64,000 bases of DNA from Yuukianura sp. NJ FZ-2021 (taxonomy: Eukaryota): contig CM102288.1 of assembly GCA_046563655.1 (NCBI GenBank), forward strand, positions 5,270,001 to 5,334,000, read 5' to 3'. This document shows positions 2,976-61,172 of the stretch, in pieces. How positions within the stretch are numbered: position 1 is the stretch's first letter; every line of letters begins with the position of its first letter. The position numbers were made by a program, and so were the translations under genes. The notes below the pieces were generated by a model. The model was not told the DNA's origin and searched no databases. It saw nothing but the letters and a program-made list of their open reading frames with translations.

Positions 2976-3484
2976 ATATTAAGTTGGAATATCTTTTCTG
3001 AACTGTAAACTAACTCTCAGTAAATTATTACAATGTACATTTTCTGTGGTTTGAAATATCCTTTGATAAAAACATAGCAAATTAATTAATTCAATTGAAA
3101 TTTAATAAGTAAATTAAATATGTAATAAAATGAAAGTGATTTTTTAAATTACAACGGGAAATTCCCTAGTTGAAATTTCTAAGTTAAAAGCGATGAACTT
3201 TTTAGGTAATTGAAATTACTTTGGAATTCTTAAAAAACATGCCATGAAAGAAGTACGCTCAGTAGGCATAACAGTGCGGCATGGTACCGAATACCATGTG
3301 TATCGCATACTTGACAAATGGGTAAAATCGGATAAAATCCAGTTCCGAGTTGACTAAATTGAGTATCTTCCGGAGAAAACATTAAATCCGGATATACCAC
3401 TACCAAGTACACCATTTTCGAGAAGAGTGAGCGGAAAAAATATTTTAAACATCCAGCAAGACTGGCTATACTATTAGCTCTATA

Positions 3485-4140
3485 ATGGTATATGTTTGAA
3501 AATTAAAAATGGTATATGTTTGAAAATTAAAAATGGTATATGTTTGAAAATTAAAAATGGTATATGTTTGAAAATTAAAAATGGTATATGTTAGAAAATT
3601 AAAAATGGTATATGTTTGAAAATAGAAATATATATATGTTTATAAGAGGGGGCTCACTACCTATTGATTAGGATAGTGAGGCCCACGCTGAGCATGCGCT
3701 GAAAATAGAAATACTAAAAATGGTATATGTTTGAAAATAGAAATACTAAAAATGGTATATGTGTGAAAATAGAAATACTAAAAATGGTATATGTTTGAAA
3801 ATAGAAATACTAAAAATGGTATATGTGTGAAAATAGAAATACTAAAAATGGTATATGCTTGAAAATAGAAATACTAAAAATGGTGTATGTTTGAAAATAG
3901 AAATATATATATGTTTATAAGAGGGGGCTCACTACCTATTGATTAGGATAGTGAGGCCCACGCTGAGCATGCGCTGAAAATAGAAATACTAAAAATGGTA
4001 TATGTTTGAAAATAGAAATACTAAAAATGGTATATGTGTGAAAATAGAAATACTAAAAATGGTATATGTTTGAAAATAGAAATACTAAAAATGGTATATG
4101 TGTGAAAATAGAAATACTAAAAATGGTATATGCTTGAAAT
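3485..4140. repeat. Composite tandem array: 24-bp units, then 32-bp units, with a 275-bp higher-order repeat carrying a stem-loop
   Basis: GGTATATGTTTGAAAATTAAAAAT at 24-bp period (3487, 3511, 3535...). GGTATATGTTTGAAAATAGAAATACTAAAAAT at 32-bp period (3722, 3754, 3786...). Identical hairpin cassette at 3650-3684 and 3925-3959. Confidence 0.95.
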
Positions 4141-4156
4141 TTACGGTATGTGATAA

Positions 4157-5060
4157 GTGATGGAGTTCATGGCGTCTGTTCAACAGCGCAGCAGCAGTAG
4201 TGAAGCCGAGAAAGAAGCAAGTGACGCTCGGAGAGACAGAGTTGTCAAAAGCATCCGAGCAGTTCACCTGACACAGCCGGAGTCAACTGTCAGCCAATCA
4301 GCGTCGACGTCAACAAAAGACAGCGACGATTTTTTCAACGAATACAACATGAGGTTATGGAGACAATCAGTTCCTACCATGGAAGAACGAATGGGCAAAC
4401 TCCAAAATGCTTTTGCAACTCCGCTACCGGTAAACTTCAGAACATTCTCAAAATTTCAAAGAAATTTTTTTTTTCGTAATTTAAACAAAAAATTTTCCAA
4501 AATTTTCATTTCAGAGTGCTAATTCAGACACAGAGGGAAAGAAAAGTCTAAAGAGAGCCAAGTCCTGTGCTGGAGTGACCCCACGAGGAATAGCCGCTGC
4601 AAAGGTCAACACAAAAGACTGGGTTCAGCAAGTCATTGCTCAAAAATTTCCAGGCGCGCCAATACCCCAAACTTCCAGAATTTCTGAAACGAATGCCCAG
4701 GAAGAACAAATCGGTGAAATTTTGGAAATTCGTGAATCGACTCAACCGCCCGCTAAAACTCAAGTTGTTTCTGAAACAATCGAAGCGATTAAAAGCGACG
4801 TCAGTGATGGCGTCATGAGCGACGGCGACGACGTAATTCTGGACCGAGTCCCAGAACGTGTATTTTATTGTGCCCAGGCAGAAGATAATATAGAAAATGA
4901 AGCTGAACTTGAAGTTAACGCTGAATTGAATGGAAACCCGCCCATAAAGATTCAAGAAAACCCGCCCAATGAATTTGATGAAAAAGATGAAGATTTGCTG
5001 GAATTTTTGGATCCTGTAGATCTTGACGACCTCGAAGCTTGGGCTGGAAAATACCTTTAA
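4157..5060 (+). pseudogene. 5'-truncated duplicate of the MICAL-like gene (last two exons; frame still open from ATG 4160)
   Basis: Exons 4157-4429 and 4515-5060 are paralogous to about 767-1036 and 1131-1679. Similarity stops at the tandem array and upstream exons are absent. Confidence 0.6.
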
Positions 5061-5921
5061 AACACAATTTAGAAAGCAAGTTTCACTTTTTTAAGTTTAA
5101 AACATTCAAATTTTTCAGTTTTTAACTTTCTTTTTCTCCAAAGGAAGAAGTGTTGTACTAGCAATAGTTGATACCGAGATTTTTTTTCTCAAAAAGTTAA
5201 AGGCTAAGCAAACCATATTAAAACCTGAAAAAAATTTGAAAGTTCACTCACAATGCAATGTTGTATCAACTTGATGGGAGCAGAATGCCAATGCTACGAA
5301 TGGAATGCTCCGGGTTTTCTCGAAACCAATTTCTTCGAAAAGTAAATTGCTCCGAAATTATAAAAAAGTACATTAGTGTCATTAGCGTTAAATAGGTTAG
5401 GCTTTTTTAGGCTAACAATGATGAGATTACCCTTGTAGTGATACTACAAGGTCGGATTAGATAAGCATGTATAACTATTTTTGGAACAATCTGGCCATCC
5501 AAGCAGTTAACTTTCCTGAGCAATTTATTCGAAGCAATGCGGTCCGGAGCAAAGGCAAAAGGCATGTTTTGTTATTGAATTGAAACAAATTTGACTTAAT
5601 CATGTTTCATGTACCAACTCATCTTCACTACTTAACGCAATACATATTGGCACAAATACTCAATGTCATTTTAACAAAAAATGACACTGAAGCGACAACT
5701 CTATTTGAAATGAAATTGAAGTGTTGTTTTTACGCAACCAAAATTTCAAGGTTAAATTTCTTACACCTACGAAAAAAGAGTAACTACTACTCAATTAAAT
5801 TTTGGATTAGATAGCAGAATTAGTCTCTGTTCGGACGTACTACGGACTACTTTGTACAGAAGTAGACCTGCTATTTTTAAGTGCAAACTTAAATTTGTTT
5901 TATTTTCATAGTTTTCACAAA

Positions 5922-7770
5922 ATGTTTTGGCTACTTTTTGTCGTTTTTGCCATTTTATTTGCTGTTTGGTTTGGAATTCAAGAATACTTAAAAAGGAGTT
6001 ACAGTTACTGGGATGCAAGAAATGTTAGATTTGTTGATATCCGAAAATTTTATTCTATTTTTGACGGAATCCTGCTCAAATACACAATTAGCGAAAGCGA
6101 ACTAAAGACGTACAATGCAGTAAAAAATGCAGGAATCAATACGTTTTGCGGATTAGTCGAATTCGGAACTCCCGAATTTTACGTCGTTGATCCAGAACTT
6201 ATCAAAACTATTTTGGTAAAATTTCATGTTTCACATTGAAAAATACTGAAGAATATATAAATTCATACATAAATTTATGCGTTGTTTATAATTTTTGGTT
6301 TTGAAGATCAAGGACTTTGATAGTTTTGTGGACCGAAGAGTTGTGGTTACCGGAAACAGTGACATTTTTGGTAAAATGCTGGCAAATATGAAAGGTCAAG
6401 CTTGGAAAGACATGCGCTCTACAATGAGTCCCACATTTACTACAGGAAAAATTCGTCGAATGTATTCCGTTTTCAATGACTCTTCTGAAAAACTAGCAGA
6501 TTTTCTACGAAAACAACCTTCGGAAAACGGAGAATTTGAACTACAGGCCGTTTTTACACGGTACACAATGGACGTCATTTCTTCTGCTGCTTTCGGACTC
6601 GATTCGCAAAGCTTCCAAAATTTAGACTCAGCTTTTTCCAAGTACACGACTCGATTTCAAAACCAATTTTCTGGAATTGGAGGCTTCAAACTTCTCGTTG
6701 CATTTTTTTCTCCCAAAATTCTTGAGTTTTTCAAAATCTCGCTGTTGGATCAGGAGGCTGCTGATTTTTTTGCAAATGTCGTCAAAAGGACAATTGCACA
6801 CCGGGAAGCCACAGGAGAAAAACGTCAAGATTTTTTGCAACTGATGATGGAAGCACGCCAAAATTCGATTGAACCTGTCGCTCTTGATGAAATGAGTACA
6901 TTTGAAAAAGACGCCCAAATTCAAAATTTTTCCAAAGTTCAACTAACCGAGGACTTGATTTTGGCGCAAAGTTTGCTCTTTTTCCTTGGCGGATTTGATC
7001 CAATTGAAACGATGCTTCGGCTTGCAGCGTATGAATTGGCACTTAACCAGGACGTACAAGACAAGCTTTTTGAAGAGCTGAAGGGGGCGTATGAGAGAAA
7101 CAAGGGACAGTTGACCTATGACCTCATCATGCAATTGGAATATTTGGAGAAGGTCACATCAGAAACACTCAGGAAATGGCCGCCGGGCATCCGCTTGGAA
7201 CGCAAAAGTACGAAATCTTACAAAGTTCCTAACTCGGACGTCACAGTTGATCCGGATACACTAGTCGTTATTCCTGTCTACGGAATACACATGGACGAAC
7301 GTATAGATTTGAATTTATATTTCACAGAAATAATTTGTTTTTATTATTTAAATTTAATTAATTTCACTTTATTTATTTTTTAGGGTACTATCCACAGCCG
7401 GAAAAATTCGACCCGGAACGATTCAGCGCAGAAAATAAGGCAAAACGACACCCATTTACTTATATGCCATTCGGTAATTTACAACATACAGACACCATGC
7501 CATACAGTTTACATGGGTTTAAAAAATTTGTGTGTTTTTTTTCTTAAAATTTCAAATATTGTTTTAGGTTCTGGTCCTCGCAACTGCATAGCTATGCGGT
7601 TTGCATTGGCCGAGGGGAAAGCTGCTTTAGCTCATTTGATTCTGAACTTTAAATTTGAACCTTGCGCAAAAACTGAAATTCCGCTAAAATTTAAAACGGC
7701 GTCACCGATGTCACCGTTCAAGCCGGTAAATGGCATGTGGCTTCGAGTTACACCAAGGAAGGAACAATAG
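5922..7770 (+). CDS. Cytochrome P450, clan 3 (CYP6/CYP9/CYP3-like), atypical I-helix GGFDP
   Basis: Exons 5922-6215, 6307-7300, 7384-7473, 7568-7770. N-terminal TM anchor, WxxxR, ETLR, FDPERF, heme motif [11 protein letters not shown]. Confidence 0.95.
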
Positions 7771-8360
7771 TGACATGGAAAAAGAATATCCCACAGACAA
7801 GCATCAAGAATAAGCTTCAACAAGTTGCAAAATAAACGTATCAAGAAATTTCTAGCGATTTCTTCCATATGGTTAATGTTGATGTCGAATTTTCTTTCTT
7901 TTTATTATAAAGTAAAGGTAGAATAAAAAAATATTAAAAATTGAAAAAATTCTCAAGTTTATTCAACAGCACTGTTGTATCAACCGAGTTTATTTTTGGC
8001 ATTGTATAAAACAAATTTCACTCAACCATTGTCATGTCTTAACTCATCTTTGCTGCTAACCACATTATGCATTAGCACAAAAAGTCAATGTCATTTCAAC
8101 AAAAAATGAAACTGAAACGAAGACTCTACTTGAACTGAAGTTGAAGTGTTGTTTTTCCATGAACAAAATTTCAAGGTCGAATTCGTTACATCTACGACAA
8201 AAGTGATATTGCTGGTGCTAAATTGAATTTTTGATTAGATAACTACAGCTATTTGCCACTTATAAGTGGCACAGAGATTCAGTGCCTGCTCGACTCTGCA
8301 CACGAGAAGAATTGCAATTTTACGAATTTAAATTGGTTCCAATTTCATAATTTAGACAAA

Positions 8361-10193
8361 ATGTTTTGGCCACTTTTTGTCGTTTTTGTCATTTTCTTTG
8401 CTTTTTGGTTTGGATTACAAAAATACTTAAAAAGGAATTACGGTTACTGGGATTCAAAAAATGTAAAGTTTTTTGATCTCCGAAAACTTTATTCTGCATT
8501 TGACGGAATACTGCTTAGGTACACAATTGATCAAAGCGAACTCAAGACGTACAATGCAGTAAAAAATGAAGGAATCAAAACGTTTTGCGGATTGGTCGAA
8601 TTTGGAGCTCCCGCATTTTACGTCGTTGATCCAGAACTTATGAAAACCATTATGGTAAAATTTTACATTTTAAAAAAGTTTCAAATTTGAGGACAAAATT
8701 TATGTTCTTTTATTTTTAAACTTGAAGATCAAAGACTTTGATAGTTTTGTGGACCGAAGAATTTTCGCCACCGGAAAGACAGACATTTTTGCCAAAATGG
8801 TATCAAATATGAAAGGTCAAGTTTGGAAAGACATGCGCGCTACAATGAGTCCAACATTTTCAACCGGAAAAATTCGTCGGATGTATTCCGTTTTCAATGA
8901 CTCTTCCAACAAACTAGCAGATTTTCTTCGAAAACAAACTTCCAAAAACCAAGAATTTGAACTTCGAGACGTTTTTACCCGATACACAATGGACGTCATT
9001 TCTTCTGCTGCCTTTGGACTCGATTCTCAAAGTTTTCAAAATTCAGATTCAGATTTTTCCAAGTACACGAAACGATTTCAAAATCAATTTTCTGGAATTG
9101 GAGCCTTCAAATTCCTAGTTGCATTTTTTTCACCCAAACTCCTTGAGTTTTTCAAAATCTCACTTATGGATAAAGAGGCTTCTGATTTTTTTGCAAATGT
9201 CGTCAAAAGGACAATTGCTCATCGCGAATCAACTGGAGAAAAACGTCAAGATTTTTTGCAACTGATGATGGAAGCGCGCCAAAATTCGATTGAACCTGTC
9301 GCCGTTGATGAAATGAGCACTTTTGAAAAAGACGCCGAACTTCAAAATTCTTCCAAAATTCAACTGACTGAAGAGTTGATTTTGGCGCAGAGTTTGCTTT
9401 TTTTCATTGGTGGATTTGATACAATTGAAACCTTGCTGCTGCTTGCAGCGTATGAATTGGCACTTAATCAAGACGTGCAAGATAAACTGTTTGAAGAGCT
9501 GAAGGGAGCATATGATGGAAACAACGGACAGTTGACCTATGATGTTGTTATGCAATTGGAATATTTAGAGAAAGTTACTTCAGAAACACTCAGAAAATGG
9601 CCGCCGGGCATTCGACTGGAACGGAAAAGTACGAAATCTTACAAAGTTCCTAACTCGGAAGCGACAATTGACCCGGATACACTTGTTGTTCTTCCCATCT
9701 ATGGAATACATATGGATGAACGTATGGATTTGTATTTATTTTATAAAATAATTAGTTTATATACATATTCACCTAATTCTAATTTGTGCTGTTATTTTTT
9801 GGTTAGGGTACTATCCTGATCCGGAAAAATTTGATCCCGAACGATTCAACGCAGAGAATAAGGCCAAGCGACATCCATTCACTTATTTGCCATTCGGTAA
9901 TTACACTAAAGAGTCCATAGCATACAGCTTGCATGGGTTTAAAAAAACAATTATTATAAAATAACAACTATAGTTTTTTTCTAAAACATAAAATGACATT
10001 TTTAGGTGCTGGTCCTCGAAACTGCATAGCTATGCGCTTTGCGTTGGCCGAGGGAAAGGCTGCTATAGCTCACTTGATTTTGAACTTTAAATTGGAGCCT
10101 TCCGCAAAAACTGAGATTCCTCTTAAATTTAAGACAATGTCACCCTTCAAACCGGCTAATGGTTTGTGGCTTCGAGTTACACCAAGGAACTAA
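8361..10193 (+). CDS. Cytochrome P450, clan 3, tandem paralogue
   Basis: Exons 8361-8654, 8728-9721, 9807-9896, 10006-10193 (first three exon sizes match the neighbour). [26 protein letters not shown]. Confidence 0.95.
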
Positions 10194-11220
10194 CATTACT
10201 GGAATACAAAAGGATATCCTACAGTCGTTAGCAATAAGCTCAAACATGCTGCAATATTTAACGTGTCCATTAAATTCAAGAATCTTTGCCGCATAAGGCA
10301 ATTAGACTTTTAATGTCCTTTTCATGTTAAAAAGCCAAATTGCGACAGAAGGAAATTAAAAAGTGCGAAGCAAGCAGAAGTTGCTAAGATTAAATTATTT
10401 CACGCATAATTAAATTAACGTAGAAAGTATTTGTACAAAAAATTTGGAAAAGTTTATTACGTTTCTCTCATTTCTCTGCACTACAAGAAAATCCAATGGA
10501 AAAAATTTCCATGGATTTTTTCAGTGTGAACAAACCAAAATCCACTCTATGAATAGAAAATCCATCCACACCTTCTCTGGGATGATCCATCCAGAGAAAG
10601 TAAATCTGGTGTGTGAACTGTATTGCCGTCCAGTGGAACGAAAATCCATCCTGTGGTTCTGTGTGAACCCGCCTTAATGAACCGGTTTCACTTTTGAAAA
10701 ATCATGCCCAAACTGAAAAACATCAAAGTTGAGTTATTGGAAAACCTGTCATAGAAAAACTTTTCTTTGTTTTTCTTTGTTTACCACCTGGTAGTGCTGA
10801 TGTAATTGGCACAAGTAAATGTTACTTGCGTAATTCAACTGGTGTAATGACGCGGAAGCACCGTAACTGATGTATTTGCCCTTTATACAAATGACACTTA
10901 TACACTAAAACTTTTATTATGCAAACTTGTAGTGCAATATATCATTTGGAAGTAATAAATATTAATTTACTTTGACCTTGAAACGTGTGTTCGTTCTAGC
11001 TGCTTTTTACTCTTATTTAACAGGGACTATTTAAATAAATCTCCACTTAACTCAACCCAAATCAGTTCAAAATCTCCCTCTCCAGAATTTAGTTGAAACA
11101 TTTTGAAATTCCAATTTCAAAAAGCCACATTTTACATTAAATGTGCAACTGCTCGTCAAACACAAGTCTGTTACCATATTGATCCCGGCACACCGAAGCT
11201 TAAAAAAACTAAAAAGAAAA

Positions 11221-12165
11221 ATGCATGTCGATTTTGCTTTAAGAATTTTCACACCATTGCTGTCGGTCTTACTTGCACATCAAGTTGAACTTTCTTTTGC
11301 GCAGGTATAATTTCCAGTTTTCAGAATCTCAGAAGTTCAAAAATTTCACTATTTTGAAAATTCTTTTAATAAAATTAGTTTCCAAAAAAAATTTCAGGCT
11401 CCCCTAGTTCCTACTGAGCACATTGACTACATCTTCCTCCGTTTGTCGCACCTCCTGGATCAGACGCCACGTGAAATTTCAAAACTTCGCGCCCTCCTGA
11501 ACGAAGAACTTGAAAGATCACCGGCATACAAAGAAGCTTGGACCGAAGGCACAGAAATTTTTAAATCCCGAAAATCGCAACTGATCAACCGCAGAGACCT
11601 GTTTCGAGTGCCAGACGAGTATCACATTGCCCTCATCACTTATACTATTCACGACACGCCCAAAGATTGGCCATTCTACAGCGTCTTCAACTCAGCTACG
11701 CGCAAACTCGCTACGGGCACGGATGTTGAAAACTTCAAGTTCAAGAGTTTCTTCCAACTTCTGCATCTTGCAGTGGAAACTTTAGGAAAAAAGAAAAAGT
11801 TCGCTCCGAAGTATGACAAACTGTTCCGAGGAGTGACGATTCGCTATGATTGGTTGTCTGATCAGGACGTTGCATTTCAGCAGTTCACTTCTCTGTCAGA
11901 GAATCGAACAGTTTCTGAAATTTATTCTGGAGGAGTTACGTTGTTGGTTTTCAAAAATATGGAAAACATTGGAATTTCAATGGAGTACCATTCTAAATTC
12001 CCGGGAGAATCCGAAATTCTGGTGTCTCCTTTCCAGGTTTTTGAAGTTACCAAGGTTGTCCCGGGAGATGGAGAGAGTTTTGACATGTTTGAAATGGAAC
12101 CAACAAATGCCAAAACGGGATTCAGGTATTTTTGTGACAAAAAGCCCCAGGACGACTATCTGTGA
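11221..12165 (+). CDS. Secreted ecto-type (ARTC, R-S-EXE) mono-ADP-ribosyltransferase, 283 aa
   Basis: Signal-peptide exon 11221-11304 (MHVDFALRIFTPLLSVLLAHQVELSFAQ) plus exon 11398-12165. Motifs HIALITYT, FYSVFNSATR, LFRG, FTSLS, SKFPGESEILVSPFQVFEV. Confidence 0.85.
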
Positions 12166-12822
12166 CGTTAATTAGCTGAAGACGGACTAAATTTGTTAAT
12201 TGTGTCTGTTATGTTCGGAGTAATATAAATATAATGTTGAGTTATATTATATAGTATAGTTATATTGCTGTATAAATTTTGAAAATGAAATAAATACTAA
12301 AATTGTACTCGTTGTGTCTTTGATGTTTTATATTTAAAAAGTTTCTAATTTCATATTAATAAAACACACAATCTTTCTAAACGTTTTTTTTTCCAGGTTG
12401 AAATTACGGTTTCAATCATGAGTGCAAAACGTGTTGTTATGTCCAGCAATTTTTAATTTCTGCAGTGAAAATCTTGAATTTGTTAATTAAACTTTATCTA
12501 GCAGTTGGAAAATATTTTAGGAGTTCATGTTAATGTTTAGTTTCGTGTTTGATTGTCATTAACTCCAAGAACAAGTTGAAATTGGCGTGTTTTGTTAAGT
12601 CAAAGCACGAGAGACGGAAGTGACTTCCAGACTTTCTTTAAAACTTACTCTTTTCTAAATTTTAGGACAAGGAGACACTTTGGTAAATTTGACACACTTC
12701 GGTGACCCTTCAGAAATAAAAGCACTTGAATGAATTCCAAATGCCTCAGTCGTCATTTCATAATGCGTGTAAAGCCAACTTCAATTTTTAGTGTCCCTCG
12801 AAATTTAAAATTTCCAGCCAAA

Positions 12823-15700
12823 ATGGCTGGAACTTTTGGAAGTAACAACAACCAAGCTGGAAAGCCTTTTGAAAGTCAAGGTGACCTGTGCTGCGGCCAC
12901 CCGCCGCTGACATGCCATGCTATTGACTTCTGCAACGAAACGGCAATGCATGGCCTCAAGTACATTGTTCAACCAAAACGGCATTTCGCCGAAAGGTAGA
13001 GTTTACTTTTTTCGAACAAATTGGTTCGAAACAAATTGGTTCAAAAAATTGGCGCGAAAACAACTTGGTTTGAAGCAAATGTGTTCGAAATGCTTAAAGT
13101 ATTTCGAAATGGATTTAAACATTTTCTTCCAAGCAATAACGTTCTGTTTTTATAAGGAATTAGCTAATTTTAAATTATCAACACATTATTCCAAAGGAAT
13201 TTTCACGAAAACGTAAACCGAGGATAATTGTTTGATTTTGGCGGGAATTGTTTTAGGCTGTTTTGGTTGGCGTCTTTTGGCATTGGCCTTGGTCTGTCTG
13301 TGTGGTTGATCCAAGACGTTTTCCGGAAGTACAAGGAAAATCCAATCATCGTTTCCTTCTGGCCAGTCGAAACACTCGTTTCGGAAGTTCCGTTTCCCGC
13401 CGTAACTGTTTGCAACATGAACAGAATTCTAAAAAGCAAAGCATTGGAGTACATCAGGTAAACAAATTTTTTGATACTCATACGTAGTACTGCATCTCAA
13501 CTTGTACTTTTCTTGCAGAGCTGCGCATGCAGTTGACCTAGATGCAGGTCAGTTGACCCCTGAGGCTATTAAGGCATTGTCTAATTTCTATAGCCTCAAC
13601 CATGTCTGCTCATCTCCCAAAAGTTTCACGCAAACTTTTAATTTGAGCGCCACGGAGGGAGTGGCAGACGAAAGGATTATAAACAAAGTCAAAAATTTGA
13701 AACTCACCTCCAACGACACCTCTCTACATTATTTTTTCAAAGAGGTAACATTTTCCAAAATTTCGAAAGTTTTTGAATATCCTGCTTTTTTTACACAAAG
13801 CTATTTTCTGCTTTTTAAGAGTTCGCAACCATGCCGTCAAATGATTCCGCTCTGTGTCTGGCGTGACAATGTGCGCAATTGCAGTGAACTTTTTAGACAC
13901 ATCGAAACTGGTACAAAATATTGCTTACCCTTGAAAATTTCTGGTTTACAATTTTGAAAACTTTTGGTTTTCAGATTTTGGAAAATGCTGCACGTTCAAC
14001 ATGGCTCCCCAACTCCTCCTGACAACATTCAAGTATGAGTCATACGACACGGAATTTAATTTTCAGAAATTCTCGAAAAAAAGCAAAAATTTTCATTAAC
14101 TTCTGCTTTTTATTGTAAAAATTTGAAAATTGCAGTAATCCTGCCAACGCGAGTGCGAAATCCCGCGAAGCTGCTGCTGCGTGGAGCTCAGTCGGCTCTT
14201 CTTTGGACACGGAGGACCTTGTTCCGAAAACAACCGAAGCCAAGGAGCGACTTGCCGAATTTCCATTTCCGCGCCGCGCCAGAAGCGCTGGAAAAACTTA
14301 CGGCCTCTCTTTCCTCTTACGACCGGATTTACCCGAGTACTTTTGCAGTGGATCTGATTCAATAGGATTCAGAGTAAAACTAACAAAATTTCAACAAAAG
14401 CTGAATAGTTTTTATGAATTTTTACATTTATATTACTTCATAATTTTTAATTTTGAAATTCTTAAGATCACTACCCATTTTACGACAGCGATGCCTCATC
14501 TGATTGACTTTGGAACTGTTGTTGAACCGAGCTCAGAAGCTTTCATTCAGGTCACTCCAGACATCACCATTGGAGATGACAGCATCAAAGGACTTTCACT
14601 CGTAAGTGGGTCAAAGGTCATCAGAGGTCATTGATCTTTCTCGGGTCAATGACCTTCAGTTATGGAAAGATCAATGTTACAAGTAGGTCATTGACTTTTC
14701 TTAGGAAAGCAGAAGGTGCTACCTGAAGGGCGAGTTTACTCTGAAATTTTATCGATTCTACACAAGAGAAAACTGTATTGATGAGTGCGTGACAAACACC
14801 ACTTTTGAGGTAAAAAACAATTTTTTTTTTCGAAAATTCACTCAAAATTGAACAAAAATTTCTGAAATTTTCCCACTTTGCATACGCTATACGCTTACGT
14901 CAGAATTGCCATTGTGTTCGCTACTATATGACAAGTGAGACAAACACTTTGTTCAAAAAAACGTTTGAAAAAAAATTTTTTTCACAGAAAAATGAAACAA
15001 AATCGTAACAATTTTTTTTGAAAATTGCAAAAACTGCCAGATGATGGAACTCAACAGTTGTGTGGACCAACAAAATTCAATTGTACGGAAATTGTACGTC
15101 GTAAGTGAAAAATATTCAATTAACCTGATCTTTGACAATTTGAAAATTGGCGGGATTTGTTTTTAGATAAAATTTTGAATGCGAGAGACGGACAATTCTG
15201 CCATCAATGTAGACCAACTTGTACTGAAATCAGCTACAGCACCGCCACCACATTCACTCCCTTGCAAAGTGATCTCGAACTTTGGAGCAGCACTACCAAT
15301 ACGTAAATGCAAAAAGTGCAACAAACAATTAGCTCAGCACAAATTACTCTGAAAAATATTAATTACTTTTGAACTTATTGCTGTTGAACTGCTTAGAACG
15401 AATCACAACGCCTCCATTGTCCACCTTTTCTTCTCTGAGCAAAGTTTCTACCCCAAAATTCGGAAGGAATTGTTTGGCATCACTGATCTGACTGGTGAAT
15501 TTTTTTTTTACAATATCACAGAAACTTAATTTTAAAAACTTATTTCTAAATAGAATTCTGCTTTACATTAATTTCGTTTATTTTAAATAATTTCAGCGAG
15601 TGTTGGTGGTTTGCTGGGCCTTTGCCTTGGTTTCAGTGCGTTGAGTGCTGTCGAACTTATTTATTTTCTCACCATCCGACCCTGGGCCACAAGACCTTAA
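12823..15700 (+). CDS. DEG/ENaC (pickpocket-like) sodium channel subunit, 13 exons
   Basis: FCNETAMHGLKYI pre-TM1, TM1, VPFPAVTVCNMN, TDFGKCCTFN, Cys-rich thumb (RRCY, ENCIDEC, CHC, CRPTC), TM2 ASVGGLLGLCLGFSALSAVELIYF. All exons join in frame via GT-AG to TAA at 15698-15700. Confidence 0.93.
14608..14697. promoter_or_regulatory. Intronic cluster of nuclear-receptor half-sites (DR1, DR4, three IR1/EcRE-like elements)
   Basis: GGGTCAaAGGTCAtcagAGGTCAtTGATCT ttctc GGGTCAaTGACCT ... AGGTCAtTGACTT within intron 14602-14704. Half-sites are unchanged in the copy at 62920-63022. Confidence 0.45.
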
Positions 15701-16262
15701 GCAATTTTTTTTTCATTTAAAAATTTTAGATCGTATATGGAAATTCAAACATTTTTTTGGAATTTTTAAAACTCTCTGATGAAGATTCGAATTTTTGTTT
15801 TAAAAAAAACCTTCGACAAGAATTCCGTCAGGACTTCGACTGCTATCCATCAACAAATTTTTGCTCAAAAGTAGTTTTGTTTTGTAAAAACAAGAAAAGC
15901 TTTTTTTGAAGTCAACTTAATCATATAATATCGTGACTGTTTTGAGGTCACGTCAAAGGCAAGTTAAGTCCTGTGATATCGTGTCCACTTTAAGGAACGA
16001 GCATTTTCAGGCTTGCCAATGGTTCTAGTATTCAGAACTAAATATTAATGAAATTGAAAGTATACGTTTGGATTAGGAAAATGCTTTGAAAAATATCCAT
16101 GAAATTATTTAGCAATTCAAAGAAACGCGCGATTCGACTTTCATAAAGTTCGAGGTAATTATACAATTCGCCACAGTTATTGCCTCGTGTGAAGTTGAAA
16201 TCCACAAATATAACTTTTTAGTTGTGTGTTAACAGTTGCTTTAAAGAAAACAGGATTTCAAA

Positions 16263-18696
16263 ATGAGTTTAATTATACCGTTGGTTTTAAATTTCCTACT
16301 ATTCTTACCCATTAATTTTGCTTTTGACAAACGGGAGTTAATGGTGGAAAATTTAAATCAATACTTGAACTTTTTCAGCGATTGCAGAGTCCATCTTTAT
16401 TTTGACAACAAAAATGTCGGTTTAGAGGAACCTTCAATTCCTGTCTACATTGGAAACGTACGTTCGACTCCCAGTCCAACAAGTCTTGACAATTTCTTCA
16501 CCACTAAAACTCTACAAAATTGGCACTATGAGTTGTATCTAAACGCCTCCGATTCAACATCTCACTTTTGTGTCATCTATTTCTTTATTCATTACAAAAT
16601 GAATTGGGCTGGATTCTTTGGAACAAGTGCATTTCAGCGCGGCGAATTTCTATTTTTTCCGGGAGCAACCGTTTCCTTTGTTATTTTCCATGATCCTAAA
16701 GTAGAAGAGCCACGAAAGAATACCGGGGGCAAATATTTGGTAAACTATGAAATTCCATATGCAATTTGTAAGCTACAAGAGAAACATTTCTCCAAAAGAG
16801 CGGCTCATCGGCGTTACTTTGCTGTAAACAGAATTGTGCTTGGGGAATTTATGAACAGAAGAGATGAGGTGTTTCCAATCCCTTTGATTTGCAGATTGGC
16901 CCACGATAAACAGTATTGCTTGCCGAGCAAGCAAATGCTTCGTATAACCCTATATAGAAATAGTCAAGGAAAGTTCGTACGGTTTGCAGTAGATGGGAAA
17001 CGCTGCGGCCCAACCGATGTTAACATTACTGATGAAATCGTGACTAAATTTTTTGGGCCTCCAGAAAAGATGGTGAGCAATACATTATGGTTGCGCAACT
17101 CAGTGAATACGACGAGAATACATCATCATGATGGTCTTGTATCCTTAGACGACGTCAGTATTTTTGATATCCATCTTCTATTTCACTTGATTGGTGCCAC
17201 AATTAGCTGTTTTACGGTAATTCATGCAGATAAATTTGTGGACCCACCGAACACAGGTTCCTATTTTTTAATGCCAATGAATAACCTAATGTTCGACGAC
17301 GTTGTAAGAGTGCTCGGAATTGACAGAAAACCAGCATTTGTGGACTACTATTCGTCTTGGCCCAAGATGGTGGTACAAACGGAAATAAACAAAGTTCTGT
17401 TTGCAACTTGTGATGGTGTTCACACTGCATTGTCTTTTGAAATTTATTTGGATCCATTCGACTGGCATATCTGGCTGTTCATGGCTTTTTCTGTCGTTCT
17501 CTTAATTCCTACGTCGCTGGCCGGGGTAACGCTATTAAAACAACATAAAGTACAATACGTGATAATTTTTGCAAAGTACGTCGAATCTGCACTGTTTACC
17601 TTAGTTGACGTAAGTTCCAGTATTAGTGACAAGGTACTGGAAAAACTACAACTAAAATCCTACCATCGAGTTGTGTTTGGAACATGGCTCATACTGTGCG
17701 TTGTGTTGGTCAATGCATACAAGGGGCTGTTTACCTCCCAAATGTCTGGGCCACTAAAACCGCAACATACGTACATAAAACCAACAGACCTCGGAGGCTT
17801 TTTACTATTTGGAGCAGGCTCCAAAACTATGGCCCGAATTTATGCAAAATATCAAAAACAAGACTGATGTATATATTAACCCAGTGTACTGCGACTGCTT
17901 GGATCTTGGCATTCGTGTCGGCCCAAAGAGGTCGCACGACGATTGTGGTGCTTTGAAAAGAGTTAGAGCTCAATTGGACTACGTCCGCTCGAACTATGTC
18001 ACAAACACGACAGTAACAGACGCTTTCTGTCGCCAGCTTCCGCCTGAAGTTGCAGCTGACTATTGGACAATCTTTCAACTGGGTGGGTCTGACGCAAATG
18101 CAAAACTAAATTGTACGCGCGACAGTTGCAAACCGGTGTTTATAAGCTACTTATTCTCTGGCAGGGACGAAGAAGATAAAATTTCTAAGTTTGCCGAATG
18201 TGATAAGGTTGCAGTTATGGATTACAAAGATGACGTTCACTACATTGTAAACAACTTAGTTATAGAGTCCCAGGGCAATAAGTCAGTTCCCAATCAGTTT
18301 ACCATAGGAAAAGAACCAGTGGCTTCAACATGGGAGGGGTATGTTCTTGAGCGCCCCTATCCAAAACTTAGACTTGCTCAGTCCAGGATTCTCCAAAGGT
18401 TGCAAGCTCTCGTCGAAAATGGAATTCAAACGTTTTGGCAAGGCTGGTTTGAGTGTATAACAGAAGGACAAATTAGTACATTGGAAACTAAAGAAACGGC
18501 GGCAAAGGTACGGCTGTTACCGAAAACGATTACACTGGAAACAAACATTGTGTCCAGTGGTATTGTGTGGGCTGTCGGAGTTGTAGCTGCTATGGTGGTT
18601 TTCATTGGTGAGAAGTGCTCAGTCATGGACTCCCGTACAGTTTGGATGGAGTTTCAGCTATTACTGTGCATTTACAGCTTTAGCCGAAAAAATTAG
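16263..18696 (+). pseudogene. Intronless divergent ionotropic-receptor (variant iGluR)-like gene with one frameshift (pseudogene or sequence error)
   Basis: Signal peptide, TCDG...SFEIYLDPFDWHIW+TM1, FGTWLILCVVLVNAYKGLFTSQM (M2), LQALVENGIQTFW plus final TM in the second ORF. The two ORFs are offset by +1 between 17779 and 17867. Confidence 0.75.
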
Positions 18697-36545: not shown

Positions 36546-38822
36546 TTAGCGAGGTTTGACTGACAGAAACAGTTTTCCACCGTCAGGTTTGAAACCAGAA
36601 GTTTTCGAATACTTCATGGGAATTGGCGTTTTTGCGGTTGGTTCAAGCTGGAAGTTCAAAACTAAGTGAGCAATTGCAGCTTTTGCTTCTGCAAGAGCGA
36701 AACGCATGGCGATGCAGTTTCTAGGTCCAACACCTAAAATTTTAAACGACGAAATTAATATTTAACTAACATTTTTGAATTGTTTTTTGAAAAACTGAAA
36801 TTTTGTTTCGAAATTTGAATTTTTTGAATGAACTATACCAAATGGCATGTAGGCGTAAGGATTTCGAGCGGCCTTGGCTTCCGCAGAAAATCTTTCCGGG
36901 TCAAATTTTTCTGGATCAGGATAGTACTCTAAAAAACAAAATTTCATTAAATTAAAACTTTAATTCATTAAAAAATTCAATTAAAAGTCGGTTCAAATGT
37001 TTAGAAAACTATGAACTACCTTATAATTACAATTCCAATTACTGTAATTACTGTAATTATAATTACCCGAATCATGGTGAATTCCGTAAACTTGGGCTAC
37101 TACAGCAACACCTTTGTCCACAACGACGTCTGAGTTTGGTAGTTTGTAAGGTCGTGCAGTAATCCGTTCTGTCCTGACTCCTGGCGGATACTTGCGCAGT
37201 ACTTCTGAAACGACTTTGTCCAAATACTCGATTTTCATAATCAAATCATGATCCAATTTCCCACCGTTGGATTCACTCGCATCACGAATCTCTTCGTACA
37301 ACTTCGTCTGAATTTCAGGATGAACTGCTAATTCATACGAAGCAAAAAGCAGTACAGTCTCGACCGTGTCAAATCCAGCAAAGAAAAACAACAAACTTTG
37401 GGACAAAATGAGATCCTCAGTTAGTTTCACTTTGTTGCTTGATTTTGCGAGTTCTTCCGAAACCATTTCGTCAATTTCCGTCTCTTCCTTGGCTTGTTGA
37501 TTCTTTGCTTCAATCATCAACTGCAAAAAGTCATCTCGAACTTCCCCAGTTGCCTCGCGGTGTTTAATAGCTTTTCGAGTAACCTCGGCAAAAAAAGTTG
37601 TAGACTTTTTGTCGCTCACGGAAACTCCAAAATATGCAAACACTTTTGGAAATAGGAGCATTGCGAACAAAAGGAATATGCGTGGAATTGAAACTGTCTG
37701 AAGCCGTTTGGCCATTTTGCAAAACTCGGAGTCCGTTTCTCCAAAATTTTGACTGTCCAATCCAAAAGCAGCGGAAGAAATGACATCCAAGGTGTAGCGT
37801 GTGAAAATGTCACGCACTTCTAGTTCTGTTTCCCCTTTCTCAACTTTGTTCTTAATAAATTCCGCCATTTTGTTGGAAGATGAACCGAAAACGTCAAACA
37901 TTCTACGAATTTTCCCAGTAGTGAAAGTTGGACTCATGCTTGACCTAGAAAAAATAAAAAATTAATCAAGGAAGAGGCTTCAAGGTTCCTTGACGACGAA
38001 AAGTTAATTTTGTTTAACAGGTTGGGTACTACCTCGCTTGCTGGCAAATAAACGAAAAAAGTAGTCCCAATTTAGTACCAATCCAAAAAAATTTATACCA
38101 ATTCGTATGCAAAATTAAAAAAATTGCTTATTGCTATGACTAGGATGCCTTGGAATAAAAGTGGAAAATTTTTGGCAAAATCAAAGAAAACATGAAGTAT
38201 TACCCAACCTTTCAAAGATAAGTAACAAATCAACAAACCTTGGAGTGGCCAAGCTCAAAGGTCACGAGGTCAGCTAGCATACGCTATTGTTAGGTTAATA
38301 AAAATTGCATTACCTCATGTCTTTCCATTCTTGATCTTTGAGATTGATCAACATTTTGTGAAAAAGTGGGTCCGATTTGGAAAAATCAAAAAGTTGTCTC
38401 CGATTCACAAAATAGTCAAAATCTTTCACCTTTGCGTTGAAAAAACAGAAGAAAATTAGAAATTTTCTAAATTTTAGTGTTTCAAAAATAATATATTTTT
38501 TTTTCATTTCTTATGTCCAATTTACCATAACGTGCTTGATCATGTCCAAATCCATAATGTAGAGACTTGGACTTCTGAATTCAATGACCCCGGCATACCG
38601 TTCACCCGTTCGTTTCAATTCATCGTACATCAGGCGTTCAATGATGTGAAACGGATTTTTGAATGTGAGGCGATCATACAATGACATGACTTTTGAATGT
38701 TCCAGGAAAAAGATTCCTCGAGATGGCCAGTATTTCCTGTCTCCACCGGAGTACTGCCATAAGGCATACACTGCCCCGCCAAGTAGAGCCACCACAATTA
38801 GAACCCACCAGACCCACCACAT
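36546..38822 (-). CDS. Cytochrome P450, clan 3 (more distant paralogue)
   Basis: Exons 38822-38526, 38429-38314, 37944-37067, 36928-36839, 36733-36546. [26 protein letters not shown]. Confidence 0.93.
37981..38242. mobile_element. hAT-like MITE in CYP intron 2
   Basis: CAAGGTTCCTTGA...TCAACAAACCTTG ends, inverted subterminal AGGTTGGGTACTAC/GTATTACCCAACCT, colinear with 49170-49411. Confidence 0.7.
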
Positions 38823-53067: not shown

Positions 53068-53612
53068 GTGCCAATTCAGACAAAGAAGGAAAGAAAAGTC
53101 TAAAGAGAGCCAAGTCCTGTGCTGGAGTGACCCCACGAGGAATAGCCGCTGCAAAGGTCAACACAAAAGACTGGGTTCAACAAGTCATTGCTCAAAAATT
53201 TCCAGGCGCGCCATTACCCCAAACCTCCAAAATTTCTGAAACGAATGCCCAGGAAGAACAAATCGGTGAAATTTTAGAAAATCGTGAACTGACTGACCCG
53301 TCCGCTAAAACTCAAGTTGTTTCAGAAACTATTGAAGCGATTAAAAGCGACGTCACTGATGGCGTCATGAGCGACAGCGATGACATACTTCTGGACCGAG
53401 TCGCAGAACGTGTATTTTATTGTGCCCAGACAGAAGATAATATAGAAAATGAAACTGAACCTGAAGTTAACGCTGAATTGAATGGCAACCCGCCCATAAA
53501 GATTCAAGAAAACCCGCCCAATGAATTTGATGAAAAAGATGAAGATTTGCTGGAATTTTTGGACCCTGCGGATCTTGACGACCTCGAAGCCTGGGCTGGA
53601 AAATACCTTTAG
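53068..53612 (+). CDS. Last exon of MICAL-like copy (5' part lost in gap)
   Basis: Near-identical to 4515-5060, open to stop after ...EAWAGKYL. Confidence 0.6.
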
Positions 53613-54466
53613 AACTAAATTTATAAAACAAGTTTCATTTTGTTAAGTTTCAAATATTCAAAATTTTCAGTTTTTAAGTTCCTTTTTCTCCAAACGAAGA
53701 AGTGTTGTACTAGCAATAGTTCATACCGAGATTTTTTTCTCAAAAAGTTAAAGGCTAAGCAAACCATATTAAAAACTGAAAAAAAATTTCTAAAGTTCAC
53801 TCACAATGCAATCTTGCATCAACCGCGTATTGTTTCATGGGGGCAGCATGCCAATGCTACGAATGAAATGCTCCGAGTTTTCGCGAAACCAATTTCTTCG
53901 AAAAGTAAATTGCTCCGAAGTTATAAAAACGTACATTAGTGTCATTAGCGTTAAATAGGTTAGGCTTTTTTAGGCTAACAATGATGAGATTACCCTTGTA
54001 GTGATACTACAAGGTCGGATTAGATAAGCATGTATAACTATTTTTGGAACAATCTGGCCATCCATGCAGTTAACATTTCTGAGCAATTGGTTTCGGAGCA
54101 ATTTATTCGAAGCAATGCGGTTCGGAGCAACGGCATAAAACCAATTTTGTTATTGAATTGAAACAAATTTGACTTATCATGCCCCAACTCATCTTCGCTA
54201 CTTAACGCAATAAGTACTGACACAAAAAGTCAATGTCATTTTAATAAAAAATGACACTGAAACGACAAGTCTTATTTGAAGTGTTGCTTTTACGCAACCA
54301 AAATTTCAAGGTTAAATTCCTTACACCTACGAAAAAAGAGTAAGTACTACTTAATTGAGTTTTGGATTAGATAGCAGATTTAGTTTCTGTTCGACTTTGT
54401 ACAGAAGTACACCTGCTATTTTTAAGTGCGAACTTAAATTTGTTCTATTTTCATAGTTTTGACAAA

Positions 54467-56307
54467 ATGTTTTGGCTACTTTTTGTCGTTTTTGCCATTT
54501 TATTGGTCGTTTGGTTTGGAATTCAAGAATACTTTAAAAGGAATTACAGTTACTGGGATGCAAGAAATGTTAGATTTGTTGATATCCGAAAATTTTATTC
54601 TATTTTTGACGGAATCCTGCTCAAATACACAATTAGCGAAAGCGAACTAAAGACGTACAATGCAGTAAAAAATGCAGGAATCAATACGTTTTGCGGATTA
54701 GTCGAATTTGGAACTCCCGAATTTTACGTCGTTGACCCAGAGCTTATCAAAACTATTTTGGTAAAATTTCATGTTTCACATTGAAAAATACTGAAGAATA
54801 TATAAATTCATACATAAATTTATGCATTGTTTATAATCTTTGCTTGAAGATCAAGGACTTTGATAGTTTTGTGGACCGAAGAGTTGTGGTTACTGGAAAC
54901 AGTGACATTTTTGGTAAAATGCTGGCAAATATGAAAGGTCAAGCTTGGAAAGACATGCGCTCTACAATGAGTCCCACATTTAGTACAGGAAAAATTCGTC
55001 GAATGTATTCCGTTTTCAATGACTCTTCTGAAAAACTAGCAGATTTTCTACGAAAACAACCTTCTGAAAACGGAGAATTTGAACTACAGGCCGTTTTTAC
55101 ACGGTACACAATGGACGTTATTTCTTCTGCTGCTTTCGGACTCGATTCACAAAGCTTCCAAAATTTAGACTCAGCTTTTTCCAAGTACACGAATCGATTT
55201 CAAAACCAATTTTCTGGAATTGGAGGCTTCAAACTTCTCGTTGCATTTTTCTCTCCCAAAATTCTTGAGTTTTTCAAAATCTCGCTGTTGGATAAAGAGG
55301 CTGCTGATTTTTTTGCAAATGTCGTCAAAAGGACAATTGCACATCGTGATGCCACTGGAGAAAAACGTCAAGATTTTTTGCAACTGATGATGGAAGCGCG
55401 CCAAAATTCGATTGAACCTGTCGCTCTTGATGAAATGAGCACATTTGAAAAAGACGCCCAAATTCAAAATTTTTCCAAAGTTCAACTCACTGAGGATTTG
55501 ATTTTGGCGCAAAGTTTGCTCTTTTTCCTTGGCGGATTTGATCCAATTGAAACGATGCTTCGGCTTGCAGCGTATGAATTGGCACTTAACCAGGACGTAC
55601 AAGACAAGCTTTTTGAAGAGCTGAAGGGGGCGTATGAGAGAAACAACGGACAGTTGACCTATGACCTCATCATGCAATTGGAATATTTGGAGAAGGTCAC
55701 ATCAGAAACACTCAGGAAATGGCCGCCGGGCATCCGCTTGGAACGCAAAAGTACGAAATCTTACAAAGTTCCCAACTCGGACGTCACAGTTGATCCGGAT
55801 ACACTGGTCGTTATTCCTGTCTACGGAATACACATGGACGAACGTATGAATTCGAATTTATATTTGATAGAAATAATTTGTTTTTATTATTTAAATTTAA
55901 TTAATTTCACTTTATTTATTTTTTAGGGTACTATCCACAGCCGGAAAAATTCGACCCAGAACGATTCAGCGCAGAAAATAAGGCAAAACGACACCCGTTT
56001 ACTTATTTGCCATTCGGTAATTTACACCATAGAGACACTATTCCATACAGTTTGATGGGTTTAAAAAAATTTGTGTGTTTTTTTTCTTAAAATTTCAAAT
56101 ATTGTTTTAGGTTCTGGTCCTCGCAACTGCATAGCTATGCGGTTTGCATTGGCCGAGGGGAAAGCTGCTTTAGCTCATTTGATTCTGAACTTTAAATTTG
56201 AACCTTGCGCAAAAACTGAAATTCCGCTAAAATTTAAAACGGCGTCACCAATGTCACCGTTCAAGCCGGTAAATGGCATGTGGCTTCGAGTTACACCAAG
56301 GACGTAA
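54467..56307 (+). CDS. Cytochrome P450 clan 3, counterpart of 5922-7770 (GGFDP)
   Basis: Exons 54467-54760, 54850-55843, 55927-56016, 56111-56307, intact. Confidence 0.95.
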
Positions 56308-56882
56308 CAATAGTGACATACAAAAAGAATATACCACAGAAAAGCATAAAGAATAAGCTTCAAAGTATTGCAAAATAAACGTATCAAGAAATTTCGAGCG
56401 ATTTCTTCCAAACGATTAATGTTGATGTCGAATTTTCTTTCCTTTTATTATAAAGTAAAGGTAGAACAAAAAATGCAGCAAACAAAAACAGCACTGTTGT
56501 ATCAACCGAGTTTATTTCTGGCATTGTATAAAACAAATTTCACTCAACCATTGTCATTTCTTAACTCATCATTGCTGTTAACCACATTATGCATAAGCAC
56601 AAAAAGTCAATGTCATTTCAACAAAAAATGAAACTGAAACGAAGAGTCTACTTGAACTGAAGTTGAAGTGGTGTTTTTTCATGAACAAAATTTCAAGGTC
56701 GAATTCGTTACACCTACTACAAAAGTGTTATTACTGGTACTAAATTGAATTTTCGATTAGATAACTATAGCTATTTGCCACTTATAGGTGGCGCAGAGAT
56801 TCAGTGCTTGCCCGACTCTGCACACGAGAAGAATTGAAATTTTACAAATTTAAATTGGTTCCAATTTCATAATTTAGACAAA

Positions 56883-58717
56883 ATGTTTTGGCCACTTTTT
56901 GTCGTTTTTGCCATTTTCTTTGCTGTTTGGTTTGGATTTCAAAAATACTTAAAAAGGAATTACGGCTACTGGGATTCAAGAAATGTGAGATTCTTTGATC
57001 TCCGAAAACTTTATTCTGCATTTGACGGAATCCTGCTTAGGTACACAATTGATCAAAGTGAACTCAAGACGTACAATGCAGTAAAAAATGAAGGAATCAA
57101 AACGTTTTGCGGATTGGTCGAATTTGGAGCTCCCGCATTTTACGTCGTTGATCCAGAACTAATGAAAACCATTATGGTAAAATTTTAAATTTTAAAAAAG
57201 TTTCAAATTTGAGGACAAAATTTATGTTCTTTTATTTTTAAACTTGAAGATCAAAGACTTTGATAGTTTTGTGGACCGAAGAATTTTCGCCACCGGAAAG
57301 ACAGACATTTTTGCCAAAATGGTATCAAATATGAAAGGTCAAGTTTGGAAAGACATGCGCGCTACAATGAGTCCAACATTTTCAACCGGAAAAATTCGTC
57401 GGATGTATTCCGTTTTCAATGACTCTTCTAACAAACTAGCGGATTTTCTTCGAAAACAAACTTCCAAAAACCAAGAGTTTGAACTTCGAGACGTCTTTAC
57501 CCGATACACAATGGACGTCATTTCTTCTGCTGCTTTTGGACTCGATGCTCAAAGTTTTCAAAATTCCGATTCAGATTTTTCCAAATACACGAAACGATTT
57601 CAAAATCAATTCTCTGGAATCGGAGCCTTCAAATTCCTGGTTGCATTTTTTTCACCAAAACTCCTAGAGTTTTTCAAAATTTCACTTATGGATAAAGAAG
57701 CTTCTGATTTTTTTGCAAATGTCGTCAAAAGGACAATTGCTCATCGCGAATCCACTGGAGAGAAACGTCAAGATTTTTTGCAACTGATGATGGAAGCGCG
57801 GCAAAATTCGGTTGAACCTGTCGCGGTTGAAGAAATGAGCACATTTGAAAAGGACGCCGAACTTCAAAATTCTTCCAAAATGCAACTGACTGAAGAGTTG
57901 ATTTTGGCGCAGAGTTTGCTTTTTTTTATTGGTGGATTCGATACAATTGAAACCTTGCTTCTGCTTGCAGCGTATGAATTGGCACTTAATCAGGACGTGC
58001 AAGACAAACTGTTTGACGAGCTGAATGTAGCATATGAGAGAAACAATGGACAGTTGACCTATGACGTTGTTATGCAATTGGAATATTTGGAGAAGGTCAC
58101 TTCCGAAACACTAAGAAAATGGCCGCCGGGCATTCGCTTGGAACGGAAAAGTACGAAATTTTACAAAGTTCCTAACTCAGAAGCGACAATTGACCCGGAT
58201 ACACTTGTTGTTCTTCCCATCTATGGAATCCATATGGATGAACGTATGGATTTGTATTTATTTTATAAAATAATTAGTTTATATACATATTCACCTAAAT
58301 CTAATTTGTGCTGTTATTTTTTGGTTAGGGTACTATCCCGATCCGGAAAAATTTGATCCCGAAAGATTCAACGCAGAGAATAAGGCCAAGCGACATCCAT
58401 TCACTTATTTGCCATTCGGTAAATTACACTAAAGAGTCCATTGCATACAGTTTGCATGGGTTTAAAAAAAACAATTATTATAAAATAACAATTATAGTTT
58501 TTTTCTAAAACATAAAATGACATTTTTAGGTGCTGGTCCGCGAAACTGTATAGCTATGCGGTTTGCACTGGCCGAGGGAAAAGCAGCTATTGCTCATTTG
58601 ATTTTGAACTTCAAATTGGAGCCTTCCGCAAAAACTGAGATTCCGCTTAAATTTAAGACAATGTCACCCTTCAAACCGGCTAATGGCTTGTGGCTTCGAG
58701 TTACACCAAGGAACTAA
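56883..58717 (+). CDS. Cytochrome P450 clan 3, counterpart of 8361-10193
   Basis: Exons 56883-57176, 57250-58243, 58329-58418, 58530-58717, intact. Confidence 0.95.
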
Positions 58718-60687: not shown

Positions 60688-61172
60688 CGTTAATTAGCCG
60701 AAGATGAACTAAATTTGTTAAATGTGTCAGTTATGTTTTGGGTAATGTTAAGAAAACGTTGAGTTATATTAAACTACTGTATAAATTTTGAAACTGAAAT
60801 AAATTATACTATAAAATTGTACTACTCATTGTGTCTTTGATGTTTTATATTTAAAAACTATTTGAAAATTTTATTTTAGGAGTTCATGTTAATTTTTAGT
60901 TTCGTGTTTGGCTGTCATTAACTGCAAGAGCAACTTAAAATTGGCGTGTTTTGTTAAGTCAAAGTCCGAGAGACGGAAGTGACTTTTTTTAAACTTACTC
61001 TTTTCTAAATTTTAGGACAAGGAGACACTTTGGTAAATTTGACACACTTCGGTGACCCTTCAGACATAAAAGCACTTGAATGAAAATCAAATGCGTCAGT
61101 CGTCATTTCATAATGCGTGTAAAGCCAACTTCAATTTTTAGTGTTCCTCGAAATTTAAAATTTCCAGCCAAA

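Follow-up and report, generated by a model that had tools for sequence, protein, structure and literature searches.

An intact, duplicated ART-family gene of an arthropod, with a predicted soluble and secreted product

The gene, its second copy and their surroundings

The window, by which we mean the whole 64,000-nt stretch of DNA that was analysed, carries a two-exon gene of the ADP-ribosyltransferase (ART) family on the forward strand and a second copy of it farther along the same strand. The features of the locus, with the means by which each was placed, are as follows.

11221-12165, forward strand: two-exon gene, read from the sequence and translated
11221-11304, forward strand: exon 1, with ATG at 11221 and 28 codons for a signal-like peptide, MHVDFALRIFTPLLSVLLAHQVELSFAQ (MHVD...SFAQ); from translation
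11305-11397, forward strand: intron of 93 nt, GT...AG, phase 0; a predicted splice from sequence reading
11398-12165, forward strand: exon 2, 255 codons and a TGA stop, holding the entire ART domain; from Pfam ART, AlphaFold2 and Foldseek
11827-11829, forward strand: codon of R144, the R of R-S-EXE, within LFRGV; from alignment to YRG of rat ART2.2
11890-11898, forward strand: codons of S165-L166-S167, STS-type motif; from alignment to FTSSS of ART2.2
12007-12015, forward strand: codons of E204-S205-E206, the EXE motif, with E206 as the presumed catalytic Glu; from alignment to Q-E-E of rat ART2.2
12289-12294, forward strand: AATAAA, candidate polyadenylation signal about 125 nt past the stop; from sequence reading only
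59746-60687, forward strand: second copy of the ART gene, with exon 1 at 59746-59829, intron at 59830-59919 and exon 2 at 59920-60687; from tblastn
4516-15693, no strand assigned: left copy of a segmental duplication carrying the ART gene, with its partner at 53068-64000 reaching the window end; from self-blastn

The original prediction had described a signal exon followed by one large catalytic exon, and this is the arrangement that we read: a signal-like exon of 28 codons, a 93-nt GT..AG intron and an exon of 255 codons. All of the motifs that it quoted (AW, HIALITYT, FN.ATR, FKFKSFFQLL, LFRG, FTSLS and ESE) lie within exon 2, where the protein reads KEAW, EYHIALITYT, FNSATR, FKFKSFFQLL, LFRG, FTSLS and GESE. 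Both copies of the gene have canonical splice sites. The exon junction, AQ|APLVPTEHIDY, is mirrored by the homologue P0004, which is 52% identical to the window protein and has a signal-like N-terminus continuous into ...AEAPLLATEHIDF. Because the N-terminus of P0004 runs unbroken across the equivalent junction, the splice between the exons is supported, and we infer that exon 1 is joined to exon 2 to encode a signal peptide and an ART domain.

According to tblastn, the second copy is 96.9% identical to the first over 255 residues and 100% identical in the exon-1 peptide; its intron is 90 nt long and has the same GT...AG ends. Eight of the 255 residues differ between the copies (V4I, I63V, E168A, I175Y, E232Q, M233L, A238S and T240S). 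At the nucleotide level the identity is 98.8% in exon 1 (1 of 84 nt differs), 95.8% in exon 2, 87.8% in the intron (11 mismatches of 90 aligned positions, and 3 gap columns) and 85.2% in the first 175 nt of the 3′ flank. The codon differences comprise 22 synonymous and 8 non-synonymous ones, for which the Nei-Gojobori method gave dN = 0.0138, dS = 0.1395 and omega = 0.099. Since omega is this low and the frames are open, both copies are intact and have been kept under purifying selection since their divergence. The 5′ flank (10200-11220) is 96.7% identical between the copies, which is above the intron, the 3′ flank and the synonymous sites (dS 0.14); it may be a conserved regulatory region or may reflect gene conversion.

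The gene lies in a segment of at least 11 kb that has been duplicated in direct orientation, with 91-94% identity and many indels between the copies; the right copy runs off the window end. Self-blastn aligned the copies in two blocks, 4516-12340 with 53068-60857 (93.75% over 7874 columns) and 12513-15693 with 60872-64000 (90.8%). Besides the ART gene, the duplicated segment contains a pair of P450 genes and the beginning of an ASC-like gene. We judged it unlikely that uncollapsed haplotypes are the source of the two copies, given the dS of 0.14 and the many indels; that reading is also countered by the arrangement as direct copies on one contig, with 37 kb of unique sequence holding other ORFs between them.

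Pfam searches of 20 long ORFs in the window identified cytochrome P450 at 6292-7383, 8674-9819 and 36993-37961 (minus strand), the last of these being an extra fragment that lies between the duplicated blocks. Tandem CYP9-like P450 genes, about 80% identical to each other, are situated just upstream of each ART copy, at 5567-7855 and 7994-10280 on the left and at 54145-56339 and 56531-58804 on the right. The closest named relatives of the P450 exon are from the springtails Allacma fusca (43-45% identity) and Orchesella dallaii (39%), with insects at 38% or below; metagenome proteins reach 66%. On this comparison, which involves a single, fast-evolving gene family, the DNA probably comes from a springtail or one of its near relatives. 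Downstream of the ART gene there is a multi-exon series of ORFs at 12800-14634 (and at 61000-64000), and the ORF at 13475-13957 gave a weak, below-threshold Pfam match to ASC (amiloride-sensitive sodium channel / pickpocket-type; E = 6.8e-4). The GC content is 35-38% throughout the window. The P450 and the weakly ASC-like ORFs that flank the gene, together with its spliceosomal-type intron, give it an arthropod setting. The window thus holds a genuine arthropod gene, intact and duplicated, in a eukaryotic context.

Two other features of the window were seen in passing. At 16245-18696 on the forward strand lie two long overlapping ORFs of 540 and 305 aa with no significant Pfam match. The start of the first is signal-like, hydrophobic segments lie towards its end, and by eye we take it to resemble a divergent membrane protein of the ionotropic-receptor type. 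The stretch 3484-4139 contains internal tandem-like repeats, with several offset self-matches at 72-89% identity.

Family membership, fold and relatives

The exon-2 protein matched the Pfam ART profile (PF01129, NAD:arginine ADP-ribosyltransferase) with E = 2.1e-24 and 86.5 bits, residues 28-221 aligning with profile positions 21-204 of 222. As the cut-off of this profile is 22.3 bits, the motif match is not a product of chance. No other Pfam family came near significance for this protein, and ADPrib_exo_Tox was absent. A sequence search of the PDB at E<=1 matched only rat ecto-ART2.2 and a pair of point mutants of it, the best E being 1.2e-4; in that alignment FRG was paired with YRG, FTSLS with FTSSS and G-E-S-E with D-Q-E-E.

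The AlphaFold2 model, computed from a 37-sequence alignment (A1), had a pLDDT of 91.3 and a pTM of 0.88, with helices in residues 9-129 and strands in residues 142-235. When the model was compared with the PDB by Foldseek, rat ART2.2 ranked first (1gxy_A; E = 1.3e-11, TM 0.64/0.72, 22% identity), and the next ranks were taken by the bacterial R-S-E transferases XopAI, HopU1, ExoS/T, Vis and C3. The predicted fold is thus of the ART2.2 type, in which a helical lobe at the N-terminus is followed by a beta-sandwich core that binds NAD. The bacterial mono-ARTs (XopAI, HopU1, ExoS/ExoT, Vis and the C3 exoenzymes) have the catalytic core fold in common with the model, with Foldseek E values of 6e-9 to 1e-6, but their identity is 12-19%, their TM to the query is 0.43-0.62, and none of them appeared in the sequence search at E<=1. 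Profile and model both bear out the ART assignment that had been made from the motifs.

The R-S-EXE signature, also named in the original prediction, is in place, with R144, S165 and E204-S-E206 aligned to catalytic residues. S165 and E206 are invariant in alignment A1. Across a larger set, divided by the trees described below into a hexapod side of 55 rows and a vertebrate side of 84, the R144 column is R in 54 and 81 rows, respectively, the S165 column is S in 54 and 82, and the E206 column is E in 54 and 82. The position two residues before the catalytic Glu, E204 in the window protein, is E in 49/55 hexapod-side rows and in 66/84 vertebrate-side rows, 16 of the latter side having Q. From these alignments, membership in the ART family (ARTC) and the identity of the active site appear near certain. 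The best-matched structure, rat T-cell ART2.2 (PDB 1GXY / 1OG1 / 1OG3 / 1OG4), shares the N-terminal helical lobe, the R and S motifs and the catalytic Glu with the window protein, whereas it has Q-E-E where the window protein has E-S-E.

Relatives were sought at several scales. A word-indexed search of 5.8 billion proteins returned three, at 46-57% identity, all of them metagenome proteins with PF01129. An exhaustive search of 1.84 billion cluster representatives gave 214 at E<=1e-3, 45 at E<=1e-10 and 6 at E<=1e-30. Thirty of the clusters were looked up, and an organism name was found on nine: Orchesella dallaii (4), Bradysia, Tribolium castaneum, Tenebrio molitor, Latimeria and a bird. A metagenome scan with the single protein found nothing; when it was repeated with a 6-sequence alignment (A2), one locus emerged, L001, which is 36% identical and cut at its contig end. 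This locus (1-924 of a 3048-nt metagenome contig) holds a 5′-truncated ORF with a Pfam ART match of E = 9.5e-22, an E-D-E motif and a hydrophobic C-terminal tail, and it appears from its sequence to belong to the Orchesella-like type.

The rarity implied by the original prediction is not borne out by these counts. In addition to the 214 clusters, PF01129 relatives have been annotated automatically in Tribolium, Tenebrio, Bradysia and Orchesella, with labels such as “ecto-ADP-ribosyltransferase 5-like” (Bradysia, Tribolium castaneum) and “arginine ADP-ribosyltransferase”. Because the databases already label relatives in several hexapods, the window gene extends a known family and does not found a new one. 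A proteome study of crab accessory-gland secreted fluid also names an “ecto-ADP-ribosyltransferase 5” (PMC4549300). No characterisation of a hexapod ARTC was found in the literature searched, a coverage that stopped short of subscription journals and bioRxiv supplements.

Two trees were computed. The first, by FastTree, had 139 rows, made up of the 150 listed matches less 13 fragments, repeats and multi-domain proteins, plus both window copies; the second was a quick IQ-TREE run on 61 rows. In both, the family falls into two parts, with support of 98-99. One side comprises 84 rows with both vertebrate-named rows, and the other 55 rows with all seven hexapod-named rows and the window copies; we call them the vertebrate side and the hexapod side, labels that are inferred from the minority of rows bearing names. 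P0003, P0004 and P0005 share a clade with the window copies (support 96-97), and P0006 comes next. This clade lies inside a group of 26 rows that also contains an Orchesella clade and a Bradysia clade, and the beetle sequences fall in another group.

The named hexapod relatives (Orchesella dallaii CAL8069579/583/591/593, Bradysia coprophila XP_037047871, Tribolium castaneum D6WII6 and Tenebrio molitor XP_068901888) are 27-40% identical to the window protein and share its Pfam domain, its tree side and its R/S/EXE columns. At 401-535 aa the Orchesella proteins exceed it in length; they contain acidic or N-glycosylation-like linkers and end in hydrophobic tails, whereas the window protein is tail-less. 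The four Orchesella dallaii paralogues (P0009-P0012) lie on one 11-Mb contig under close accessions, CAL8069579 to CAL8069593, which suggests a tandem cluster.

Predicted topology

The peptide encoded by exon 1 is basic at its start, contains a hydrophobic core of 11 residues (maximum Kyte-Doolittle mean 2.31) and has small residues ahead of the exon junction; at the equivalent place, strong signal-like N-termini are also found in the homologues P0004 and P0006. The other end of the protein is hydrophilic over its last 25 residues, the maximum 11-residue Kyte-Doolittle mean being -0.46, as against 2.25 for P0004 and 2.2-3.4 for the Orchesella proteins. A hydrophobic C-terminus of the GPI-attachment type is thus absent from the window protein and present in P0004, L001 and the proteins of the Orchesella clade. 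Since it has no such tail, the protein would be released rather than GPI-anchored. Taken together, the hydrophobicity profile and the homologues suggest a secreted product.

The window protein has a single cysteine, C246, so that the original prediction was right on both this count and the missing GPI-like tail. Vertebrate ecto-ARTs have four conserved cysteines, which form two disulfides, and rat ART2.2 is both GPI-anchored and disulfide-bonded. Four alignment columns are Cys in 52-71% of the 84 vertebrate-side rows and in 0-5% of the 55 hexapod-side rows, and at these columns the window protein has L19, Y139, M188 and F245. In contrast to ART2.2 it has no tail, and it has none of the four cysteines of the vertebrate side. 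The description of the protein as vertebrate-like accordingly stands for the fold and the active site and fails for the disulfide framework, the four columns being missing from the hexapod side. A secreted protein without disulfides is unusual, and this counts against secretion.

The vertebrate enzyme nearest in topology is ART5. In the literature, ARTC1-4 are described as GPI-anchored and ARTC5 as secreted (PMC9027952), and ART5 is placed in the same Pfam family with an R-S-E triad containing “RGV” and an E-x-E motif (PMC7955679; PMC9027952). However, ART5 is not an orthologue of the window gene, the window clade being on the hexapod side of a split with support of 98-99; ART5 itself was compared by description only.

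Among the hexapod-side rows that start with Met, 5 of 51 have a signal-like N-terminus, all five in the window and Orchesella clades, a count that is partly an artefact because unspliced metagenome gene calls miss the signal exon (P0003, for instance, starts at the equivalent of exon 2). A signal-like N-terminus is also missing from the annotated proteins of Tribolium (P0026) and Bradysia (P0017), and in this the beetle and fly relatives differ from the window protein. The small number of signal-like N-termini suggests that the hexapod-side branch may be ancestrally intracellular.

Proposed function and alternatives

We propose that the window gene encodes a soluble, secreted, arginine-specific mono-ADP-ribosyltransferase with an ART5-like topology, and we consider this the probable account, in which secretion and specificity are the inferred parts. 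Exon 1 would provide a cleavable signal peptide, and the mature protein of about 255 residues would fold as rat ecto-ART2.2 does, its helical lobe at the N-terminus preceding a beta-sandwich core for NAD binding. Equipped with the full set of R144, S165 and E204-x-E206, the enzyme would bind NAD+ extracellularly and modify proteins outside the cell or on its surface by passing a single ADP-ribose to their arginine side chains, with some NAD-glycohydrolase side activity. Lacking a tail, it would be released rather than held by a GPI anchor, as is the topology of vertebrate ART5.

The protein might instead be mainly an extracellular NAD+ glycohydrolase, which removes or senses extracellular NAD+ and does not modify proteins. 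The closest solved structure is that of rat ART2.2, which is mainly an NADase, and the same fold and residues serve both reactions; the fold alone is therefore no proof of transferase activity. Nevertheless, ART2.2 has Q at the -2 position (Q-E-E), whereas the E-S-E of the window protein corresponds to the signature of arginine transfer: Glu at -2 in R-S-EXE determines arginine specificity, according to Laing et al. 2010 (PMC3102197). The retention of this Glu in most hexapod-side rows (49 of 55) also speaks against the hydrolase, which we regard as unlikely, and the sequence motif suggests that the window enzyme is arginine-specific.

We give a similarly low rating to an exported toxin, defence factor or seminal-fluid factor that acts on the cells of other organisms, such as microbes, predators or mates. 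Pierisin and CARP-1 are invertebrate enzymes of the ARTC class that target DNA. Pierisin is reported to be a two-part protein of 98 kDa with a receptor-binding C-terminal region, whereas the window protein is a bare ART domain of 255 residues, with neither a cell-binding nor a translocation domain. Furthermore, the strong purifying selection between the copies (omega 0.10) is at odds with the diversifying pattern often found in toxins. An outward-acting factor would fit the predicted soluble and secreted product without a membrane anchor, the recent duplication of the gene, the bacterial effectors and toxins that follow ART2.2 among the structural neighbours, and the ART5-type protein named in the crab accessory-gland fluid proteome (PMC4549300).

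A non-secreted, intracellular ART is very improbable. Exon 1 would then lie outside the transcript, and the protein would resemble the beetle and fly relatives (P0026 and P0017) that begin without a signal; the 5 of 51 signal-like N-termini and the lack of disulfide cysteines are in keeping with this. However, an in-frame ATG is missing from the beginning of exon 2, and the APLVPTEHIDY with which this exon opens aligns with the post-signal region of P0004. Between the copies, exon 1 has also changed less than the intron (1 of 84 nt against 11 of 90 aligned positions), each copy has canonical splice sites, and many of the relatives are unspliced metagenome gene calls, which are prone to miss a signal exon.

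It is scarcely credible that the gene is a bacterial contaminant, was recently acquired from bacteria or is decaying as a pseudogene: ART domains are common in bacterial toxins, but the gene has an intron and P450 and ASC-like neighbours within one contiguous window of uniform GC, a vertebrate ART is all that it matches in the PDB at the sequence level, both trees place it with hexapod-named sequences and apart from the vertebrate side, a weak, pattern-based scan of 185,579 prokaryote genomes with A2 gave 39 pattern matches and 0 relatives, and the open frames and omega of 0.10 of the two copies counter a pseudogene.

A wider picture can be put forward tentatively. Hexapods of the springtail type may have an ecto-ADP-ribosylation system of their own, parallel to that of vertebrates, in which GPI-tailed paralogues (the Orchesella clade, P0004 and L001) would exist beside a released soluble form, the window gene. 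The ART scaffold would be free of disulfides, its beetle and fly relatives apparently intracellular, and the secreted forms would have arisen when a separate signal exon was gained. In immunity, defence or reproduction, the soluble enzyme would then act outside the cell as an NAD+-dependent effector that modifies arginine. Intact, duplicated and maintained by selection, with a predicted secreted topology, the window locus is a clean example, and it would be a convenient place to start asking whether arginine ADP-ribosylation takes place extracellularly in organisms other than vertebrates. Two points are mildly interesting in themselves: the scaffold lacks disulfides, and springtail-type sequences include both tailed and soluble forms.

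A minor observation concerns the differences between the two copies. The original prediction had pointed to SENR/SANR and SEIY/SEYY, just after the STS-like motif, and these are indeed among the 8 of 255 residues that differ: they correspond to E168A and I175Y, so that 2 of the 8 changes fall within about 10 residues. The clustering is only mildly above expectation and was noticed post hoc. By position, we take this stretch to match the “PN loop” of C3-type ARTs, a name found in the PDB titles of the Foldseek matches.
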